Sequence record: MN850568.1
Origin: Escherichia phage altidsur
Length of the DNA stretch: 42,197 nt
Reading direction: 5' to 3' (one strand)
The notes under the pieces are model-generated. The model had not been told where the DNA came from. It ran no database searches and saw nothing but the letters and a program-made list of their open reading frames with translations. Position 1 is the first letter of the stretch. Each line of letters starts with the position of its first letter. A program made the translations under genes and the position numbers. Of the stretch, positions 1 through 15,167 are shown piece after piece.

Positions 1-296
1 ATACGTTCGTGCAGCACACCAACATGGTAGCCCGGCAGATGCCCGGCACTGCTGCTGCACTGGGGTGGAGTCGTGATAACGATGCCCAGTTCCAGTTCAT
101 GATGCAGATGGGTTATCAGGCAGGTTCAAGCTGGTATCGTACCGATGGTGCGTACAGCAAACTGGCTGATGCAATCCGTGTTGGCGACCAAGAGAAAGCT
201 GTGCAGGCTCTGGCTGCGACCCCGGCTTATAAGCTGTCGCAGGACGAGCGTAAGCAGTATTACGTCCAAACTCTACTCGCAGGTATGCAGGAATGA
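1..296 (+). CDS. Internal virion protein B, C-terminal end (partial at window start; probable continuation of the ORF that runs off the window 3' end)
   Basis: Open frame from position 3 to the stop at 294-296. The ORF leaving the window at 42197 joins it in frame (2401 + 296 nt = 899 codons). ATGA stop/start overlap with the next gene. Confidence 0.6.
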   Translation, partial: TFVQHTNMVARQMPGTAAALGWSRDNDAQFQFMMQMGYQAGSSWYRTDGAYSKLADAIRVGDQEKAVQALAATPAYKLSQDERKQYYVQTLLAGMQE

Positions 297-3200
297 TTAT
301 CACACAAGAATCGCTCGACAAGTTCATGGCTCCCAAGCAGGGGGCCAACGCTCCCTCGCTGGTTATTCCAGCTCCCGTAAAGACTGCTGACCTCAGCACT
401 CCACTGCAAGATGCCACTCGTCAGGGTGCCGTCGAGCAGTTCGACAAGATGCAGGAACTGGAAGCAACTCCGATGGCCACGGCGTTGAGTGCTTCTGTGA
501 AGAACTGGGACACCACCCAGCTCTTTGATGCCGCGTTCAACAAGCCCACCTTCCAAGCTGACCCGGACTTCAAGCCCAACGAGGCATTGCAGAACGTACA
601 GTTCCCGGTGGGTGCAGATGACCGGACGTTCCTGTTCAAATCCAAATCCATGGACGAGTTCAACTGGCGTACCCAGCAGCTCCAAGAGATGCGTGAGCGT
701 ACCCAGTTGGCTCACACTGCCCCGGTGATGAACGCGGTTCTGCAATTCGCTGACCCGCTGTATCTCGCCACCGACCTGCTCTCGATGGGAGCAGGCACTG
801 CCCTGAAATTAGGTCGCCTCGGAACCGCCGCTGTCGGTGCAGCTTCAACTGCTGCCACTATGGCAGCGGTGGGTAACGAAGCACGCCCAGTGTCTCAGAA
901 CGAGATTATCTTCGCGGCTGCCCTGCACGGGGCAGCCACCACCGCGTTCTATCGTCCCGCCGCCGCGCCAGCTCGTCGCCTTGATGAACTGTCGCCGGAG
1001 GAGTTCGCTGCTGAGATGCAGCGCCGTAACGGTATCGACCCCAACAACCCGCCGCAGTTCGACCCGAACAATGCTATGTCGCCGCTGGCGATGTCGCTCG
1101 GTGTTGGCCCACGCGGTGCCGCTGTCGTTGACGAGGTTCCTGAATCCATCCGGGCTACGGCTCAGCGTGGACTCGACCTCGCACGCCGTGGCGAGCAGAC
1201 CAACCCTAAGCGTCCGTTCCTTGAGTGGTCACTGTTCAAGTCTTTCAGCCAGCACTCTGATGAATCAAGTGCTCTGGCCGGGCGACTGCTGGACGACCCA
1301 CTGAATCCGAACATGACCTCCGCTGCGTCTATCCAGCGCGAGACTCAGGCTCGCTTTGGTGTGCTGCTGAACCAGTATGAGGATACACTGCGCAACGCCC
1401 TGAACGCTGATGGCTGGAGCAACATCCGGCGCTTCCGCGACCCGGTAGGCTATCGCCGGGCGCAGCAGGAGTTTGAAGCTGCTGTGCGTCTGGAGCTGGA
1501 TAAGCGTATGATTGACCCCAGTTTCAAAGGCGCTAACCCAAATGTGGCCAACGCTGCCGACCGACTGGGGGAATACTCCCGTGCCGTTGGCCGTGAGCTG
1601 GAGAACAAGGGTATGGTTGAACCGGGCTTCGTTGAGAAGAACCCGTACTACTACCCGCGCCGGATGAACGTGACCAAGATTGAGCAGGCTGAGCAGTTGC
1701 TCGGCAAGAAACCATTCATGAAGCAGATGACGACTGCTGTGCAGCGCGGTATCGGTACTGACCGTCCGACTGCCAACGTCATTGCCCATGCTATGGTTGA
1801 GCGTGCTCGTCGTAAGGGTTACGGTATCGACAACTCCGGGATGATTATCAACAAGGAGGGTCGTGATGAACTACTCGAAATCATCGCGAACACGAAAGGT
1901 ATGGACGAGGCTGCCAAGGCCCGTGCGTCAGCGCTCCTTCGTGAGTCTGGCTCGGACGCTGGTAGACCGTCAATGCTTAAGAGCCGTATCAACATCGACA
2001 TGATGCACACGCTTGGCCCTAACTTGCAGGTGCGTGACCTGTTCGATGACAGCATCACCAGTATGATGGACAGCTACAACCGACGCATTACTGGGCGACT
2101 GGCTCTGCACGAGGCTGGATTGGGTACTGACGCTGAACGAGCTGCTGCTCGCGAGGCTCTGGCCAAATCTATCCCGGACAGCACTGCACGCCGCAAGGCT
2201 CTCGACCAGTACGACAACATCATGGCCTACTACCAAGGTGCTCCTGTTGGTGAGGAGATGCCGGAGTTCATGCGTCAGTTGTCGGCGCTGACTCAGGCCA
2301 CTGGTCTGGCTGCATCTGGTCTGTGGCAGTTGGTGGAATACGGCACGATGATGCAACGTTTCGGGGCAGTCAATACGTTTCGCGCCATGATGCGTACAAT
2401 TCCCGAAGCACGCGCACTATTTAAGCAAATGAGGGTGTCTACTAAGGAAGGTCGTCAGTTGGCACTTGATGCCGAGGAAGCTCTGACTGCGGCGGTTGCG
2501 AGTGATATTCGTATGCGCCCAATCATGCAGCACTATGACGACATGTTCTCTGCGGATAAGTCTCCGTGGGTCATGCGTATGGAACACCTGCGCGATGCCA
2601 CGATGTTCATCAACATGCAGAAGTACATCCACTTCCACCAGACTCGAACCAACGCTGCGCTCGTAATGCAGACGCTGCGCAAGGCAGCCGAAGGTGATGC
2701 CAAGGCTATTGCAGCCATGAAAACCTACGGTGCCAATGACGCGCTGCTGGCTGACATTCGCAAGCAGGTTGGTACTCATGGCACCAAGCCTGACGCTTGG
2801 GATGAAGGGGTGTTCAATCGCTCCCGCATTGTCATGATGAACGCCATGGATGACGCTATTGTTCGTGCTCGCGTAGGTGAGCTGCCTGCTTTCGCTGAGT
2901 TCAGTACCCTCGGCAAGTTCCTGTTTACGTTCCGTCGATTCGTCGCGGCTACGCACAACAAGACGCTGGTTGGTACTTGGAATCGCGAGGGTGCGCGTGG
3001 TATGGCTACGCTAATGGCGTACCAGTACCCGCTGGCGATGATGGCCACCGCTGCCAACAACGTCATCTCCGGCAAGGCATTCTCTGACCCGGACACTATG
3101 GCCCCGAACAAACTGGCAGGTCAGGCACTGAACTATCTTGGTGCTATCGGCTTTGCCTCTGAGTTCACTGGTGTACTGACCGGGCAGCAGCGTAGCTTCG

Positions 3201-3403
3201 GTGCGCCGGGCCTGCTGTTCCTCGACCGCCTGTATGGTGTCGCCGGGGCCACCTCTGCTACGGCAGGGAGTCTGGCTACTGGTGACATCGACCAAGCCGG
3301 GCATGACGCTCGCAAGGCTGCCGGGAACATCATTCAGGCTCTCCCACTAATCTCCATTGTGCCGGGTGTCCGAGCACTCAACGAAGCAGTTAAGGGCGAA
3401 TAA
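293..3403 (+). CDS. Internal virion (core/ejection) protein C, 1036 aa
   Basis: Very long ORF between the lysozyme-domain internal virion protein and the tailspike, matching T7/phiKMV gene order for the large core protein; ATGA coupling upstream, TAATG coupling downstream. Confidence 0.65.
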   Translation: MIITQESLDKFMAPKQGANAPSLVIPAPVKTADLSTPLQDATRQGAVEQFDKMQELEATPMATALSASVKNWDTTQLFDAAFNKPTFQADPDFKPNEALQNVQFPVGADDRTFLFKSKSMDEFNWRTQQLQEMRERTQLAHTAPVMNAVLQFADPLYLATDLLSMGAGTALKLGRLGTAAVGAASTAATMAAVGNEARPVSQNEIIFAAALHGAATTAFYRPAAAPARRLDELSPEEFAAEMQRRNGIDPNNPPQFDPNNAMSPLAMSLGVGPRGAAVVDEVPESIRATAQRGLDLARRGEQTNPKRPFLEWSLFKSFSQHSDESSALAGRLLDDPLNPNMTSAASIQRETQARFGVLLNQYEDTLRNALNADGWSNIRRFRDPVGYRRAQQEFEAAVRLELDKRMIDPSFKGANPNVANAADRLGEYSRAVGRELENKGMVEPGFVEKNPYYYPRRMNVTKIEQAEQLLGKKPFMKQMTTAVQRGIGTDRPTANVIAHAMVERARRKGYGIDNSGMIINKEGRDELLEIIANTKGMDEAAKARASALLRESGSDAGRPSMLKSRINIDMMHTLGPNLQVRDLFDDSITSMMDSYNRRITGRLALHEAGLGTDAERAAAREALAKSIPDSTARRKALDQYDNIMAYYQGAPVGEEMPEFMRQLSALTQATGLAASGLWQLVEYGTMMQRFGAVNTFRAMMRTIPEARALFKQMRVSTKEGRQLALDAEEALTAAVASDIRMRPIMQHYDDMFSADKSPWVMRMEHLRDATMFINMQKYIHFHQTRTNAALVMQTLRKAAEGDAKAIAAMKTYGANDALLADIRKQVGTHGTKPDAWDEGVFNRSRIVMMNAMDDAIVRARVGELPAFAEFSTLGKFLFTFRRFVAATHNKTLVGTWNREGARGMATLMAYQYPLAMMATAANNVISGKAFSDPDTMAPNKLAGQALNYLGAIGFASEFTGVLTGQQRSFGAPGLLFLDRLYGVAGATSATAGSLATGDIDQAGHDARKAAGNIIQALPLISIVPGVRALNEAVKGE

Positions 3404-9575: not shown

Positions 9576-10111
9576 TGACTAACTTTGAAATCTGTATGCG
9601 GTTCACCGGGCTGGCAGAAGGCGGTTACGCCAACCTGCCCGGAGACACCGGAGGGGAAACGAATCATGGAATTAGTGACGCTCGTGATGGAAAGCTGGAT
9701 GGTAGAGCTTGCGGTGTCCCTACTGGGCTTGGCGGCACTATTTGTGTGCCTATCCGCAACCTCACCAAAGCGCAAGCCGAAGCAATCTATCGACGGGACT
9801 ACTACAGCCCCATCCGAGGTGACGAGCTTCACCCTGCGATTGCATGTGCCGTGTTCGACTACGGCGTTAACTCAGGTGTCTCCCGTGCGGCGAAAGCTCT
9901 ACAGCGGGTATGCGGCGTTGCACAAGACGGGGTTATTGGCCCTGCTACCGTGGCAGCAGCCAAACGTCTGGAACCTCACTCCGCAGCAGCAGCCATCTGT
10001 GACCTTCGTATTGCGTTCCTAAAGGCTTCTACAGCCCCGACAATCGTTCGGTATAGGGATGCCTTGGTAGCTCGTGCAAAACGCTGTAGCGACTACTGTG
10101 CGACGCTGTAG
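9575..10111 (+). CDS. Endolysin, GH108-type muramidase with C-terminal peptidoglycan-binding-like region, 178 aa
   Basis: N-terminal motif LAEGGYANLPGDTGGETNHGIS and downstream IYRRDYY match the GH108 signature (EGG...DPGG.T..GI...YxxDYW) read by eye; no N-terminal TM/SAR segment. Confidence 0.8.
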   Translation: MTNFEICMRFTGLAEGGYANLPGDTGGETNHGISDARDGKLDGRACGVPTGLGGTICVPIRNLTKAQAEAIYRRDYYSPIRGDELHPAIACAVFDYGVNSGVSRAAKALQRVCGVAQDGVIGPATVAAAKRLEPHSAAAAICDLRIAFLKASTAPTIVRYRDALVARAKRCSDYCATL

Positions 10112-10320
10112 GGGCTATCGAAAGCTGGAGCATTGAACAGGCCGTGGGGAGCAATACCCCCGGCTTGAAAATTGCATGTTTATAGTTGCCCCTCCCTCGA
10201 CCCAAATGACCGCGCGTACCCCCATGACGTGTGCGCGGATTAGCCTCGCGACGTGCGCGATATTGCCTCGCGTGTGCTGCGCGGCGCGTCAAGAGGATTG
10301 CCTGCGTGCGGTATAGCTCG

Positions 10321-10710
10321 TGCGTGTCGCGTTTCACTATCGCCGCGCGGTGCTGTCCTGCTGGCTGGCTGTGTGCCTGCTGTGTGGGCTATCGGTGGCG
10401 GTGTGGTGCTGTCCTATTGGGGACGCTCTGCGCTGGCTGCGTGGTGCTGCTGGCTGCGCGTGGTCGGTCGGGTATCTGTCTCTTTTCGTCGTGGTGTGTG
10501 GTGCTGGTGTGTAGCGGTGTGCGGCGTGGTGCTGCCGTCCTGCTGTGTGGTGTGCTGGTCTACTGTCTGCGCCTGCCAGCTCTGCGCGTCATGCTCTGCT
10601 ACTGTCTCTTACTGTCCTACTGCCTTCACTGTCTGCCGTCTGTCAGTCCTACGGTCTGCCATCCGTCATCCGTTCGGCGCTCGCTTGTTTCGGCTGCGCC
10701 GCGCTCGCTC
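10321..10710. other. A-depleted (G/T/C-only) strand-asymmetric tract; candidate genome-terminus / terminal-repeat-associated region
   Basis: By manual count roughly twenty A residues in ~390 nt on the + strand. Because every stop codon contains A, all three + frames stay open, which produces the overlapping Cys/Arg-rich ORFs in the track. Sits between the last late gene and the early promoters. Confidence 0.6.
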
Positions 10711-10730
10711 TGCGTATCTAGCGATACTAT

Positions 10731-10752
10731 ATCACTATAGACACTTTCATAA
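10731..10752 (-). promoter_or_regulatory. Copy of the 22-bp phage promoter-like motif ATGAAAGTGTCTATAGTGATAT, inverted; + strand reads ATATCACTATAGACACTTTCAT
   Basis: Reverse complement is identical over 22 bp to 31211-31232; contains the CTATAG core reminiscent of the CACTATAG core of T7/SP6-type promoters. Confidence 0.45.
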
Positions 10753-10757
10753 TTATC

Positions 10758-10856
10758 TAATGATTACAGTAACTTATAACCTATCTGATAACGGTATTCT
10801 ATCCAGTGTTATGATTATCTAATCAAACTTTAATCCTAATGATTACAGTAACTTAT
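10758..10856. repeat. AT-rich direct repeats (20-bp TAATGATTACAGTAACTTAT at 10758-10777 and 10837-10856, plus duplicated ATTATCTAA)
   Basis: Exact 20-bp duplication 79 bp apart, read directly, immediately downstream of the A-depleted tract and the inverted promoter-like motif. Confidence 0.6.
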
Positions 10857-10877
10857 CACTTTTCTTGAAAATAATAC

Positions 10878-10907
10878 TTGCCAATCTGTTTTGGTTTATG
10901 CTGTAAT
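10878..10907 (+). promoter_or_regulatory. Host sigma70-type promoter candidate (TTGCCA-N18-TGTAAT)
   Basis: -35-like TTGCCA at 10878-10883 and the same TATGCTGTAAT -10 box as the next two promoters. Confidence 0.35.
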
Positions 10908-10984
10908 TCATCTCGCCGGACAACACAGCGTTAACGTGTTGGACGGTGTAGGACGGTAACACTGCTCTTTAACAATCTGGTGTG

Positions 10985-11013
10985 TTGACAAGGCAAGCTC
11001 ACTATGCTGTAAT
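10985..11013 (+). promoter_or_regulatory. Host sigma70-type early promoter (TTGACA-N17-TGTAAT)
   Basis: Perfect -35 TTGACA at 10985-10990, 17-nt spacer, TATGCTGTAAT box; one of three identically spaced copies upstream of the early region. Confidence 0.55.
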
Positions 11014-11121
11014 GCTTCCACGTCAGCCAGCAAGCTAAACAGTCATTGATAAAGACGTTAAAACACACGTAGGCAAGCTGGTACGGTTTAACTATCTCAG
11101 AACGGGCGCTGATTAAATCGG

Positions 11122-11150
11122 TTGACAGGATGAAATGAGTATGCTGTAAT
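11122..11150 (+). promoter_or_regulatory. Host sigma70-type early promoter (TTGACA-N17-TGTAAT)
   Basis: TTGACA at 11122-11127, 17-nt spacer, TATGCTGTAAT box at 11140-11150. Confidence 0.55.
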
Positions 11151-11201
11151 GCACACCAGATTGACAGGGCAGCAAGCCAGTCAGTCAGAAGTAAAAAGTA
11201 G

Positions 11202-11230
11202 TTGACACGCTGAATACGATGTGATGTAAT
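11202..11230 (+). promoter_or_regulatory. Host sigma70-type early promoter (TTGACA-N17-TGTAAT)
   Basis: TTGACA at 11202-11207, 17-nt spacer, GATGTAAT box at 11223-11230. Confidence 0.5.
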
Positions 11231-11687
11231 CAGCACCGAGTTGAAAGGTTGCAAAACAACCTGCTCTGAGTGAACGTAAACTGGCCACGTAGTGTCACGG
11301 TCTCATGGGTATCCGGCGCAGCTAGGAACTGGTGAGAGGCATCGCTGAAAAGCAACGGTATTGCAACAATGCTAACGCCGTAGGGGTAGTGCCTGATGCA
11401 AGGGAACGGAGAAGCGCGATAGACACAGCGCAGTATCAGTAAAATCCCAAACGTCTTATAAGGCGCGGAGTGAAGCGGGTAGGTAGGCAAGCTGGTAACG
11501 GTGAGCCGGACTGCTGGAGGACTCCTGAGAGTGGATGCAGACAATATCCACGGCGCGAAATGGGCGGGGCGATTTTTCAGGGTAGTGAATCCGACAAGCC
11601 AATCAATGCCACTTAGTGCAACATGTACGGCGCGTCACAATGGGTTCACTATCCACCTGAAAATAGCCAACAACTGGAGAAATAACT

Positions 11688-12080
11688 ATGTACCGTATCT
11701 ATGCAAGCGCATATCGTCAGGGCAACGCTGAATGTGTTAATCTGGCGCTTCATTGCAAGGCACTGCGAACGGTGCAGGATATGTTCGGAGTGGTTCCGGT
11801 CACACTGACAGGCAAGTTCGACAATGCGTACGAGTTAAGCATGGTCTTTCCTGTCGATGGAATCTACGAAATCAGGCAGGCTGTTAAGCTGTTCTGTAAA
11901 GCATTCGAACAGGACTGCATCATGGTAGTGACCAAAGATGATGATGCAATCTTCATGGATTCACCATATCCGGGCAAGCCTGCTGGCAAGTTCGTCAGCA
12001 AGACTGAGGCCGAAATGGAAGCCGGGCAGCACACCGCTTGGACTTACGATGGTGAACAATTTTGGGTAGTGGAGGCGTAA
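11688..12080 (+). CDS. Early hypothetical protein, 130 aa
   Basis: First ORF after the ~450-nt leader; GGAGA RBS 8 nt upstream of the ATG. Confidence 0.55.
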   Translation: MYRIYASAYRQGNAECVNLALHCKALRTVQDMFGVVPVTLTGKFDNAYELSMVFPVDGIYEIRQAVKLFCKAFEQDCIMVVTKDDDAIFMDSPYPGKPAGKFVSKTEAEMEAGQHTAWTYDGEQFWVVEA

Positions 12081-12081
12081 C

Positions 12082-12156
12082 ATGTTTACCGCACTGTGTG
12101 TAGTAGCGGCGGCCTGCTGGGTCATTGACCAGCGACTGAGCCGTCGCCGTGGCTGA
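12082..12156 (+). CDS. Tiny hydrophobic peptide (24 aa, MFTALCVVAAACWVIDQRLSRRRG)
   Basis: ATG 1 nt after the upstream stop, with a strong GGAGG RBS 6 nt upstream; hydrophobic N-terminus with basic tail; not in the ORF track because of length. Confidence 0.3.
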   Translation: MFTALCVVAAACWVIDQRLSRRRG

Positions 12157-12217
12157 TAGCCTATAGCGTCCTGCGGGGCGCTATGTGAAATCAACCAACC
12201 TGACAAGGGGTACTACC

Positions 12218-12748
12218 ATGACAACTGCAATCAAATACACTAGCTTCAAAGACGCTGCCGCTCTGGACAAGGCCATTGAGTCTACCGTCAAGAAGGCGCA
12301 CTCACTCCGTAGCGACATTCAGAACGTTGCGGTCGGCATCATCCTGCACGCTTACCATCACGGCGACTACACTCGTGCTGAATCCTTCGTGAATCAGCTC
12401 GGTCAGGGTATCCGTGGTAAGGCGCTGGTAGACTGGTTCGTCAAGTTCGGCGGCCTGATTATCGGTGAGAACGGCGGGAAACAGGGCTTCATTGGCTGGC
12501 AGGGCGCTGAGTATATCAAGGCGAACATTGACACGGCCAAAGCCACTATGTGGTGGAGCCTGAAACCTGAGCAGGCGTTCGAAGGTTTCGACCTGCAAGA
12601 TGCGCTCGAAAAGCTGATTGCCAAAGCTGAGAAGGCGCTGAACAAGGCGAACGAACTGCGCCACGAAGGGAAGGACGAAGACGCGAACAAGGTTGTCGTT
12701 CCGCAGAACGTGCTGGATGCACTGCGCAAGGCTAAACAAGCTGCGTGA
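12218..12748 (+). CDS. Early hypothetical protein, 176 aa (Lys/Ala-rich C-terminus)
   Basis: ORF with AAGGGG RBS before the internal ATG at 12218; the track ORF begins 33 nt earlier at 12185. Confidence 0.6.
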   Translation: MTTAIKYTSFKDAAALDKAIESTVKKAHSLRSDIQNVAVGIILHAYHHGDYTRAESFVNQLGQGIRGKALVDWFVKFGGLIIGENGGKQGFIGWQGAEYIKANIDTAKATMWWSLKPEQAFEGFDLQDALEKLIAKAEKALNKANELRHEGKDEDANKVVVPQNVLDALRKAKQAA

Positions 12749-12755
12749 TTACTGA

Positions 12756-12778
12756 CAGGCCATTCACTGAGTGGCCTG
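12756..12778 (+). promoter_or_regulatory. Intergenic RNA hairpin (CAGGCC-loop-GGCCTG); candidate RNase III/processing or attenuation site
   Basis: 6-bp perfect inverted repeat with 11-nt loop between two early genes. Confidence 0.35.
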
Positions 12779-12813
12779 AATTGTAACCACACATCAACCC
12801 AAAGGGGCATAGC

Positions 12814-13092
12814 ATGACTTTTAAAGCTGTAGACACTCGCACCAAACCGCTGGCACACTCTTTCCCGGCAGCACTGATGGGAGGCCAGCTCACTGGCACC
12901 ATCGTAGCGACCATTGACGACACTGGCCGCATCGACATCAAGGAAGGCGCGGAGAACCTGCCGCACTTTGCTCAGAGCCGTGACATTCTGGACGAGTCCG
13001 GCGACTTCCTGTGGCTGGTCGATGAAGACCAAGGCACCGAATGGGATGGCACCGTTCGCTGGGGTCGTCAGGAAGACTTCGAAGTGGCATAA
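12814..13092 (+). CDS. Small acidic early protein, 92 aa
   Basis: ORF preceded by a hairpin and AAAGGGG RBS; Asp/Glu-rich with acidic C-terminus (EDFEVA). Confidence 0.6.
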   Translation: MTFKAVDTRTKPLAHSFPAALMGGQLTGTIVATIDDTGRIDIKEGAENLPHFAQSRDILDESGDFLWLVDEDQGTEWDGTVRWGRQEDFEVA

Positions 13093-13106
13093 GCCGGGAT
13101 TGACTC

Positions 13107-13130
13107 AAGCCAGTGTCAAGGCGCTGGCTT
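13107..13130 (+). promoter_or_regulatory. Intergenic RNA hairpin (AAGCCAG-loop-CTGGCTT), part of the repeated hairpin + GGCAAT..TGCC module
   Basis: 7-bp perfect stem with 10-nt loop, followed by GGCAATTCTGCCCCAACC, RBS and ATG. Confidence 0.4.
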
Positions 13131-13168
13131 TATGGCAATTCTGCCCCAACCTATTCGGAGTATTATCC

Positions 13169-13450
13169 ATGACTATCAAAACTGTAACTGCATTCGTGAC
13201 CAAGAAAGCTGGCGAACTGTATGGCTTCGCTGTTTCCCTGAACGAAGGCCAGTACCTGCACCACGTTCGTGAAGAAGGCGAGCCGACTGAGGCCGTAGCC
13301 ATCCTCGAAACGTTGCAGGGTATCCCGCTGCCACACGAGTTCATCATCATGCTCGCTGAGCAGGACGAAGACGACCTGCGACTGCGCCACGGCGACGACC
13401 TGACGATTGAAGAAATCGGCACGTTCGAAGCAGAAGTAGACGACGAGTAA
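13169..13450 (+). CDS. Small acidic early protein, 93 aa
   Basis: Internal ATG of track ORF 12914..13450, chosen because the upstream part overlaps the preceding gene; GGAG RBS; acidic C-terminus (EAEVDDE). Confidence 0.6.
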   Translation: MTIKTVTAFVTKKAGELYGFAVSLNEGQYLHHVREEGEPTEAVAILETLQGIPLPHEFIIMLAEQDEDDLRLRHGDDLTIEEIGTFEAEVDDE

Positions 13451-13460
13451 GCGTTGTCCT

Positions 13461-13484
13461 GCTGCATCCTTGCGAGGGTGCAGC
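13461..13484 (+). promoter_or_regulatory. Intergenic RNA hairpin (GCTGCATCC-TTGCGA-GGGTGCAGC) of the repeated module
   Basis: 9-bp stem with one G-U wobble and loop TTGCGA, followed by GGCAATAATGCC box. Confidence 0.4.
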
Positions 13485-13521
13485 GTGGCAATAATGCCTT
13501 ACTCAATCTGAGGGTTTTAAT

Positions 13522-13863
13522 ATGAGCATCAAACTTGTAATCCTGACCAACATCGCAGCTTCCGCATTCGGCGCAGACGTACCGGAAGAAGCGCGTACTG
13601 CTGAGTGGGTGGCGTTCACCTCCGACGACGAGGGCTACCTGATTGCAGGCCGCAACCGCGACGGCGACTCTGCCGAGGACATCGTGGCGCACTTCGACGC
13701 TGACGAAGGCTTCGCTGGGTTCGCAGCTTCTGGCCTGCCGCTGGAACTGTTCGGCATGATGAACGGCGTGCCTTTCATCGACCGTGAGAAGCTGGGCGCA
13801 GACGTGTCTGTCACCGAGCTGAAAGTGTACGGCGAAGAAGATGACGTAGACTTCTCTGCGTGA
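13522..13863 (+). CDS. Small acidic early protein, 113 aa
   Basis: ORF after the conserved module (ACTCAATCTGAGGGTTTTAATATG); strongly Asp/Glu-rich. Confidence 0.6.
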   Translation: MSIKLVILTNIAASAFGADVPEEARTAEWVAFTSDDEGYLIAGRNRDGDSAEDIVAHFDADEGFAGFAASGLPLELFGMMNGVPFIDREKLGADVSVTELKVYGEEDDVDFSA

Positions 13864-13869
13864 TACCTT

Positions 13870-13893
13870 ACTGCCTCGTTGCGACGGGGCAGT
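13870..13893 (+). promoter_or_regulatory. Intergenic RNA hairpin (ACTGCCTCG-TTGCGA-CGGGGCAGT) of the repeated module
   Basis: 9-bp stem with one G-U wobble and the same TTGCGA loop as 13461-13484, followed by GGCAATCATGCC box. Confidence 0.4.
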
Positions 13894-13928
13894 GCGGCAA
13901 TCATGCCCCAACCTACTGAGGATTTAAT

Positions 13929-14204
13929 ATGTCCACTATCAATGTGTTTTCCCTGAACAACGGCGGTCTGGCTTTCATCGTTGGCGAGACTGTTGACAAT
14001 GCACCTTCACTGGGTGTGCAGCCGAAGCCGGACGCAAGCCATGACGAAGTGATTGGCGAAGTGCGCGAGGCGCTGGAAGACCTCGGCGGTATGCTGATTG
14101 CCATTCAGGGTGGCAAGCTGTCGGTTGAAAAGCTGAATGCACTGGAGCCTCGCTTCATCACCAGCTTTGAAGCTGACAACGTAGACGCGGCTGACTTCGA
14201 GTAA
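13929..14204 (+). CDS. Small acidic early protein, 91 aa
   Basis: ORF after the conserved module (CCAACCTACTGAGGATTTAATATG); acidic C-terminus. Confidence 0.6.
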   Translation: MSTINVFSLNNGGLAFIVGETVDNAPSLGVQPKPDASHDEVIGEVREALEDLGGMLIAIQGGKLSVEKLNALEPRFITSFEADNVDAADFE

Positions 14205-14239
14205 GCCGACCACTAACCCACCAGTAACAGGAGAACAAC

Positions 14240-14476
14240 ATGGCTAAGTTTGAACTGGTACGCTTCACCGACCCGAACGATGGTGAAGTAACCTATGCAC
14301 AATTCGCTGACGACCGCCAGCAGGTGGCAGTGTACACCAGCAAGACCTTTGCTTTCGAACAGTTCGGTGAGGAACTGCACTTTGACAGCGTGAGCTACGT
14401 GCTGCTGTCCGGTGGTGAGTACGCCGATGCAGTGCAGGCCGCACTGGATGAAGGCGAAGTCATCAAGACTGCGTGA
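14240..14476 (+). CDS. Small acidic early protein, 78 aa
   Basis: ORF with AGGAGA RBS; Asp/Glu-rich. Confidence 0.6.
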   Translation: MAKFELVRFTDPNDGEVTYAQFADDRQQVAVYTSKTFAFEQFGEELHFDSVSYVLLSGGEYADAVQAALDEGEVIKTA

Positions 14477-14483
14477 TTTCTGT

Positions 14484-14507
14484 CAGCCCATCCATAGCGG
14501 TGGGCTG
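14484..14507 (+). promoter_or_regulatory. Intergenic RNA hairpin (CAGCCCA-loop-TGGGCTG) of the repeated module
   Basis: 7-bp perfect stem with 10-nt loop, followed by GGCAATCATGCC box, RBS and ATG. Confidence 0.4.
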
Positions 14508-14544
14508 TAGGGCAATCATGCCACAACTAACTGAGGGTTTTACC

Positions 14545-14829
14545 ATGGCTAAAGTAACTGCATACTACTCCGCACAAGAGAAAGACATCGTGGCTGTTGT
14601 TGGTGACGGCTTCGAAGAAGGCAACTATGCGCTGTGCATTTCCGGCTGCAAAGAAGTACCGAAGCTGAACACGGTTGATGATGCTGTGGCTGCGCTGCCG
14701 TCGCTGCAAGCTGACATCGAACGCATGGGTGAGCTGGCCTTCCTGCTGCACGGTGGTTCGCTGAACGCTACTGCTTCGGTTGACATGCCTGCCAAGGGCT
14801 ACGAAGAAGTCGGTAGCTTCGAGGTCTAA
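14545..14829 (+). CDS. Small acidic early protein, 94 aa
   Basis: Internal ATG of track ORF 14473..14829, directly after the conserved module (ACTGAGGGTTTTACCATG). Confidence 0.6.
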   Translation: MAKVTAYYSAQEKDIVAVVGDGFEEGNYALCISGCKEVPKLNTVDDAVAALPSLQADIERMGELAFLLHGGSLNATASVDMPAKGYEEVGSFEV

Positions 14830-14831
14830 GC

Positions 14832-15167
14832 ATGGCGTTGCATCCGGTCAAGGTATTCCGTGGGCCTGACATTACGGATGGGCAAGACGTGGCGGTACTG
14901 CTGTACCGCCTGCCCGATGGTCAGGAAGGGCTGGTCGTCATCGACCAGATTGAAATCTTAGGGCAGCAGATGTTGACGAGTGAGGCGAGCGACGAGCAAA
15001 TCATCGAACGCTTCAAGGCGTACGCCGGGCGCAGGCCATTCATCATCGACCTGCTGAACGAGCTGCACTACAGCGCCGCGCCGCTGGCTATCCAGACGTG
15101 GCTCAAGATTCTCACTCCCATCTACGAGGGTGAGATGTATCTGTTTGGTATTGACAACGAGGAATAA
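14832..15167 (+). CDS. Early hypothetical protein, 111 aa
   Basis: Tightly packed ORF on the same strand, 2 nt after the upstream stop. Confidence 0.55.
   Translation: MALHPVKVFRGPDITDGQDVAVLLYRLPDGQEGLVVIDQIEILGQQMLTSEASDEQIIERFKAYAGRRPFIIDLLNELHYSAAPLAIQTWLKILTPIYEGEMYLFGIDNEE

Follow-up and report, generated by a model that had tools for sequence, protein, structure and literature searches.

The early region of Escherichia phage altidsur raises a simple question: is the very short reading frame behind its first gene a gene in its own right? The frame occupies positions 12082-12156 (+ strand) of the sequence record MN850568.1, and we call the whole stretch of 42,197 nt that was analysed the window. 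It consists of 24 codons and a TGA stop (12154-12156), and direct reading of the sequence gives the product MFTALCVVAAACWVIDQRLSRRRG, exactly the hydrophobic peptide with a basic tail that the initial annotation had described. The length of such an ORF is by itself uninformative: 58 ORFs of at least 20 codons overlap the 3.5-kb stretch around it. Its start site, its conservation, the selection acting on it and the RNA structure into which it runs are more telling, and they are considered below in this order.

Start site, early operon and encoded peptide

The small ORF is located between the SAM lyase gene, which is the first gene of the early region, and gp2. The SAM lyase gene (gp1, 'anti-restriction SAMase'; 11688-12080, +) was identified by Pfam PF23780 (E=1e-27), by phrog_2226 and by the annotation of relatives. 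The gene gp2 (12218-12748, +; phrog_1448, E=6e-51) encodes a 176-aa early protein of the phiKMV type that is widespread, with tblastn matches in 509 records including LUZ19 gp3. Only a single base (C, 12081) separates the ATG at 12082 from the TAA stop of the SAM lyase gene (12078-12080), and a Shine-Dalgarno (SD) sequence, GGAGG at 12071-12075 (+), lies 6 nt 5' of this ATG within the last SAM lyase codons. Both the gap of 1 nt and the well-placed GGAGG had been pointed out before, and the sequence agrees on both points. This combination is rare: the + strand of the 42-kb window has just five instances of GGAGG with an ATG 4-9 nt further on, the small ORF included. Of the other four, two open large genes and a third is an internal Met in frame. 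The sole remaining site (1866-2003, +), unexplained by a known start or an in-frame Met, opens a 45-codon ORF that lies out of frame inside the large gene at 293-3403.

Folding of the junction predicts a stem at 12051-12090 (+), formed by GGUGAACA in SAM lyase codons and UGUUUACC around the start of the small ORF; the SD sequence falls in the loop. An equivalent stem occluding the start was predicted in 10 of the 10 relatives folded, with energies of -8 to -14 kcal/mol. Pairing of a start region with the 3' coding end of the preceding gene is the usual arrangement in translational coupling, and the predicted stem is a possible basis for coupling of the small ORF to the SAM lyase gene.

Upstream of these genes, direct reading and the repeat families D8 and D10 reveal four tandem early promoters of the sigma-70 type at 10878-11233 (+), with the elements TTGMCA and TGnTGTAAT and spacings of 17-18 nt. 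Their shared -10 region is unusual in carrying G at position 2; a consensus promoter scan, which requires A at this position, missed the TGTAAT promoters. Judged by their sequence, these four promoters would drive the operon. They are followed by a leader of ~450 nt (11240-11687) with no ORF before the SAM lyase gene. A sequence inside the small ORF, TTGACC at 12125, was also considered as a sigma-70 promoter and rejected: no -10 element follows it at a suitable distance, and RZ4-type genomes have not kept TTGAC.

Two further observations concern the region of early transcription. Between the first and second early promoters, at 10963-10975 (+), stands TGCTCTTTAACAA, the exact boxA consensus of the E. 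coli rrn operons. By chance, ~0.04 matches per window with one mismatch or none are expected; the sequence is exact in phage aldrigsur and has one mismatch in the leader of phage J8-65, and T7 carries a comparable sequence, CGCTCTTTAACAA, between promoter A3 and gene 0.3. This element suggests antitermination of early transcription by Nus factors. Further upstream, window positions 10231-10822 are G/T-rich, with short degenerate direct repeats and long spurious ORFs rich in Cys, Val and Leu. The J8-65 record begins with a 259-bp terminal repeat, and by alignment with it the stretch 10231-10822 should be the physical left end of the genome, in which case the window is circularly permuted relative to J8-65.

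The encoded peptide is divided into a hydrophobic N-terminal segment of 15 residues (M1-I15) and a polar, basic tail, DQRLSRRRG. Residues 1-15 have a mean Kyte-Doolittle hydropathy of 2.41 and a summed Hessa scale of -1.5 kcal/mol in the window, and the variants of relatives range from 2.2 to 2.7 and from -0.6 to -2.5 kcal/mol, respectively, with a net charge of the tail of +2 to +3. The hydrophobic run is Ala-rich and, at 15 residues, short for a membrane-spanning helix, the canonical length of which is 19-21 residues; insertion into the membrane is predicted as likely, not certain. According to the positive-inside rule, a basic tail is expected to stay in the cytoplasm. A lipoprotein signal was rejected for both cysteines, since the -1 residue of a lipobox would be L before C6 in all variants and L before C12 in the RZ4/Kc261/Lidtsur type.

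Conservation, selection and distribution

Around the small ORF, sequence identity is 98.9% with Escherichia phage aldrigsur and 84-93% with other phages of the genus Bonnellvirus (Autographiviridae). Searches with the peptide (tblastn) found the ORF in frame in 18 phage records, all of them Bonnellvirus, from phages of E. coli, Enterobacter, Cronobacter, Kosakonia and Pantoea. None of the 18 records has an annotated feature under the match. The ORF is as unannotated in its relatives as the initial annotation had found it to be here, and would have been missed because of its small size.

The spacer between the SAM lyase gene and gp2 was extracted from 13 relatives for comparison. Two stop/start junctions occur among them, GGAGGCRTAAnATG and GGAGTAAGGRG(n)ATGACYATG, and both place an SD sequence 6-8 nt from the homologous ATG. 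Loss of the frame in related genomes had been named as an observation that would speak against a gene, with conservation of the ribosome-binding site as a further check. The frame is kept in the 18 records with substitutions of the coding type, and the SD sequence is kept in both types of junction. Among the genomes that carry the small ORF, there is no stop or frameshift within it.

Substitution statistics were calculated for the first 20 codons in 10 haplotypes of this single genus. The pN/pS is 0.23 in the frame of the small ORF, whereas the two remaining sense frames give 1.10 and 2.27 and the best of the antisense frames gives 0.51. None of 2000 column shuffles reached the value of the small ORF; the haplotypes are related and partly recombinant, and these statistics rest on few independent events. 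Variable columns are distributed over codon positions 1, 2 and 3 as 8/4/13. A count of minimum events per codon gave at least 15 synonymous against 10 nonsynonymous changes (binomial P=1.7e-4), and the counts in the other frames (7/20 and 3/23 synonymous/nonsynonymous) were not significant. The pS of 0.39 is similar to that of the neighbouring genes (0.22 and 0.45), and nonsynonymous divergence is 0.09. With its pN/pS, the small ORF falls between its annotated neighbours, the SAM lyase gene (0.16) and gp2 (0.27).

The replacements that do occur are mostly conservative (V/I/L/A, T/A and R/K), and the codon of Ser20 alternates between AGC and TCT. Thirteen residues are invariant (M1, A4, L5, C6, A9, A10, C12, W13, D16, Q17, R18, L19 and R22). 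By this pattern of substitutions, purifying selection is acting on the encoded amino acids of the small ORF. In addition, the strict conservation of DQRL suggests a specific contact of the peptide rather than unspecific damage to the membrane.

The distribution of the small ORF indicates both loss and gain. In phage HHU8 the ORF has been cleanly deleted except for its last ~15 nt. In LIMEzero, which belongs to the sister genus Waewaevirus, and likewise in L058, a genome from IMG/VR, the hairpin described below comes directly after the SAM lyase stop, with no small ORF between them. The small ORF is thus a Bonnellvirus-specific insertion, and any function that it has is dispensable, as the deletion in HHU8 and the absence from LIMEzero and L058 imply. 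LIMEzero has an annotated 22-codon ORF3, which was considered as a counterpart and rejected as unrelated and not hydrophobic.

In the lineage of forsur, glasur, usur, ROV85 and LF82-23, the C-terminus of the peptide is altered and ends in SKRA, and a second unannotated hydrophobic ORF of 27 codons, MWDLLVALFWFVFAGLWIYWLTRPKLW, stands between the small ORF and the hairpin. It was found only in these five Bonnellvirus records. Its ATG comes 1 nt after the stop of the first ORF (TGATATG; forsur locus L009, 856-939, and also L007 and L013), and three nucleotide differences among its copies are all synonymous. The hairpin behind it is a LIMEzero-type variant (AATGCG…CGCATT), which points to acquisition by recombination.

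Beyond the genus, searches for homologues of the peptide were negative. There was none in Pfam, PHROGs, NCBIfam, PADLOC or PDB sequences, and no match in NCBIfam, Pfam, PHROG or PADLOC even at E<=10. None of the 10 variant peptides is present in a collection of ~15 billion predicted proteins, nothing similar was found in plasmids or in 5,426 E. coli genomes, and among 50,697 phage records searched by tblastn with the peptide, Bonnellvirus alone matched at E<=10. A scan of IMG/VR for the core C-W-x-x-D-Q-R-L gave eight loci, three of them real Bonnellvirus genomes and the other five chance matches inside long unrelated ORFs, and no peptide homologue was found in IMG/VR beyond those three genomes.

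A conserved RNA hairpin at the end of the small ORF

The small ORF ends inside a two-helix RNA hairpin at 12151-12196 (+), which was defined by covariation, a covariance model and folding. The lower helix has 7 bp (12151-12157 with 12190-12196) and contains the UGA stop of the small ORF in its 5' strand. It is followed by an invariant 4x4 internal loop, AGCC (12158-12161) opposite UGAA (12186-12189), and by an upper stem of 10 bp (12162-12171 with 12176-12185) closed by the loop UGCG (12172-12175). The predicted fold has -24.0 kcal/mol (z -4.38). Among 22 distinct copies, 95.7% of cells are paired and 11 pairs have changed on both sides, with compensatory changes in all seven pairs of the lower helix. 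The covariation score is 0.471, compared with 0.137 after shuffling (0 of 500 shuffles reached it) and at most 0.12 with slid partners. Moreover, the covariance model scores 73.7 bits on the + strand and 12.1 bits on the - strand, and two G-U pairs on the sense strand are invariant; this bias and these pairs argue for an RNA of the sense strand and not a DNA cruciform.

The element is far more widespread than the small ORF. It is present in 238 phage records, mostly of Klebsiella phages like KP34, and includes Bonnellvirus, Waewaevirus, Drulisvirus and others. A genome has the element at 1-5 places, with a lower helix that is self-complementary and particular to each copy, and the core of 32 nt (12158-12189) is 100% identical in Drulisvirus and other podophages. 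In the window this core is single copy, and it is common to genera with different RNA polymerases. The core corresponds to the motif AGCCTATAGCGTCCTACGGGGCGCTATGTGAA described as a 'putative phage promoter' of KP34-like phages (Eriksson et al. 2015, PMC4411677), from which the 32-mer of the window differs at one loop base. Lu et al. 2019 (PMC6834552) report that KP34 RNA polymerase made no product in vitro from a PCR fragment with this motif. Whereas the KP34 motif was proposed as a promoter, the element here behaves as a covarying two-helix RNA.

In L029, L055 and Minorna, a stretch resembling TATAAT stands 5' of the hairpin and was considered as a promoter that would put the hairpin at the 5' end of a transcript. 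It was rejected because TAATTAC is the self-complementary outer helix of a second hairpin copy (Eriksson Table 3, PMC4411677) and L029 and L055 are recombinants of copies 1 and 2. Rfam has no family matching the hairpin or the small-ORF region. Its match to a Mn riboswitch at 11913-11952 (minus strand; 20 bits against a cutoff of 45) and its match to a lncRNA model are chance. A leader-peptide attenuator is not indicated either: no terminator-like site was found in 10000-15000, the hairpin is followed by GUGAAAUCAACC and not by a U-tract, and it also occurs without the small ORF.

The ORF preceding the hairpin has its stop in the 5' strand of the lower helix in every lineage compared. This ORF is the SAM lyase gene in LIMEzero and L058, an ORF ending in YEGLGEYL and a double stop in Drulisvirus, and the small ORFs in Bonnellvirus. 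The Drulisvirus loci (L027-L059) share a conserved ORF ending in (V)YEGLGEY(L/V), which stops right at the lower helix. In the Minorna record (L003, ~1440-1500) the YEGLGEY ORF has no annotated CDS, the nearest preceding one ending 130 nt before it; a further gene, small or mis-annotated, may be present at this locus.

Similar structures follow other early genes of the window. [quoted passage not shown] Their spacers are 65-76 nt long, several start with CUGCGUGAU, in which UGA is the stop of the upstream gene, and each hairpin is then followed by a CA-rich leader and an SD sequence. A weak match of the covariance model was obtained at 13856-13911. In total, six of the seven early spacers have the two-tier layout, and the 36-nt spacer at 14205-14240 alone is without it. 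The small ORF ends where other early cistrons end, a further sign that it is treated as a cistron.

The layout resembles the RNase III signals of T7 (R0.3, R0.5, R1.1 and others), which likewise stand in spacers of early mRNA and have a lower stem that includes the upstream stop, an internal loop and an upper stem of ~10 bp. The T7 0.4-0.5 spacer, which holds the R0.5 RNase III site, folds into a two-stem hairpin: the lower stem has 9 bp and includes the UGA stop, and beyond an internal loop the upper stem has 10 bp. Its folding energy is -22.8 kcal/mol (z -4.36), close to that of the window hairpin. There is no sequence similarity between the window hairpin and the T7 sites, and the former is far more conserved in sequence across genera than a generic RNase III site would need. 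By analogy with T7, the hairpins are probably signals for mRNA processing or stabilisation.

Explanations for the small ORF

T7 offers several points of comparison. Its gp0.5 (47 aa, GRAVY 1.38), gp1.4 (51 aa) and gp1.5 (29 aa) are annotated small hydrophobic products of the early or class II type, with GRAVY values of 0.9-1.65 and a best 15-residue hydropathy of 2.1-2.6, a range that includes the value of the small-ORF peptide. T7 gp0.5 also ends in a basic tail (KGALRK). The suggestion in the initial annotation that early regions of the T7 type hold comparable tiny membrane peptides is therefore correct in kind; the small ORF is shorter than these three, stands directly behind the SAM lyase gene and has no sequence similarity to them. 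The positional analogue is T7 gene 0.4: its start overlaps with the end of the anti-restriction gene 0.3 (TAATG), and its own UGA UAG stop stands at the base of the two-stem hairpin in the following intercistronic spacer. Its product, which inhibits FtsZ, has 51 aa, is not hydrophobic (GRAVY -0.03) and has no homology to the small-ORF peptide; nor did tblastn against 50,697 phage records at E<=10 reveal homology to the T7 gene 0.4/0.5 families.

Type I toxins (Ldr, Fst/PepA1, TisB, Ibs and ShoB) and the E. coli proteins AcrZ, MgtS and MgrB have ~19-50 residues, one hydrophobic helix and a charged juxtamembrane tail. The small-ORF peptide shares this architecture of size, helix and tail with the toxins and with the regulatory small membrane proteins of E. 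coli. In contrast to type I toxins, it is encoded in the early operon of a lytic phage, and it matches no NCBIfam or Pfam family. No sigma-70-like site for the promoter of an antisense RNA antitoxin was found on either strand in 10000-15000, by a scan insensitive enough to have missed the TGTAAT promoters.

We consider it somewhat more probable than the contrary that the small ORF is a genuine accessory gene of the early region, specific to Bonnellvirus, which encodes a small membrane peptide and is translationally coupled to the SAM lyase gene. In the mechanism that we propose, host RNA polymerase would transcribe the early operon from the tandem promoters at ~10878-11233, and the small ORF would be translated right behind the SAM lyase gene, with its SD sequence in the last lyase codons and its ATG 1 nt past the stop. 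Ribosomes finishing the SAM lyase gene would open the predicted stem that hides the start of the small ORF. The hydrophobic helix of 15 residues in the product, which has 23-26 residues, would most likely insert into the inner membrane and leave the conserved tail, DQRLS(R/K)RR, in the cytoplasm, where it would probably act on a membrane-associated host component during takeover. This role would be accessory and not essential. Translation would end inside the lower stem of the conserved hairpin, as for other early cistrons, and the hairpin would probably mark a site of processing or stabilisation of the mRNA.

A doubtful alternative is that the small ORF is translated and its peptide is incidental, the frame serving only to keep ribosomes moving past the SAM lyase stop until they reach the base of the hairpin. 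The stretch might be kept translated as protection from Rho or decay, or ribosomes on the lower stem might tune processing and the expression of gp2. This would fit the ending of the upstream ORF at the lower helix in every lineage and likewise of other early cistrons, and the second mini-ORF of the forsur lineage ends at the same helix position. However, an incidental peptide would not be expected to show selection on its amino acids, with the low pN/pS, 13 invariant residues including DQRL and a Ser that is kept through AGC and TCT, and phages without the small ORF simply put the lyase stop beside the hairpin, where no spacer ORF is needed. Selection also bears on the very unlikely explanation that the small ORF is a recent neutral insertion, open by chance, whose similarity among genomes reflects shared ancestry and recombination. 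Its confinement to a single genus, its absence from the sister genus, its loss in HHU8, the lack of homologues and the few independent changes are all compatible with such an origin. Yet a pS as high as that of the neighbours combined with much lower nonsynonymous divergence, the open frame in every genome and an SD sequence kept across two junction architectures speak against neutrality.

We regard it as hardly credible that the small ORF is untranslated and that its conservation comes from an RNA or DNA element or from a gene on the opposite strand. The small-ORF region is GC-rich and folds somewhat better than shuffled sequences (z -2.35), and an antisense ORF of 81 codons (11961-12206) overlaps the small ORF, shares its wobble positions and is stop-free across it in all genomes, so that it could mimic a coding signal. 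But the three-base periodicity of variation and the conservative replacements are unexpected for an RNA element, for which Rfam offered no match. As a source of constraint, the antisense ORF was rejected. Its start varies between genomes from +8 to +215 and is mostly TTG or GTG without an SD sequence, its stops differ and give lengths of 30-102 aa, its C-terminus is frameshifted in J8-65-type genomes, it hardly overlaps the small ORF in the forsur lineage, and its pN/pS is 0.51. Furthermore, the genes of these phages are all on one strand, which is the + strand in the window.

A more specific proposal, which we hold to be quite unlikely in this form, is that the peptide is a genus-specific early microprotein born de novo with a specific host target, its residues C6, C12 and W13 together with DQRL contacting an inner-membrane protein. 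Such a peptide might block a membrane-bound defence or the entry of DNA from superinfecting phages, in partnership with the SAM lyase. On this proposal, mini-genes would arise preferentially between the lyase stop and the hairpin, a hotspot suggested by the 27-codon ORF of the forsur lineage.

As an accessory early gene for a membrane peptide, which is the explanation we favour, the small ORF would add a conserved gene overlooked in all Bonnellvirus genomes deposited so far and would be a clean case of length cut-offs hiding phage microproteins under selection. Its position beside an anti-restriction gene in the operon expressed first makes it a candidate factor for host takeover, exclusion or anti-defence, and a natural knock-out (HHU8) and variants with two peptides (forsur) exist for comparison. 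The hairpin is arguably the more general result. A motif of 32 nt in more than 230 genomes of Klebsiella, E. coli and related podophages, once called a phage promoter and later refuted as such, is now a covarying structured RNA resembling the RNase III sites of T7, and this gives it a testable function.
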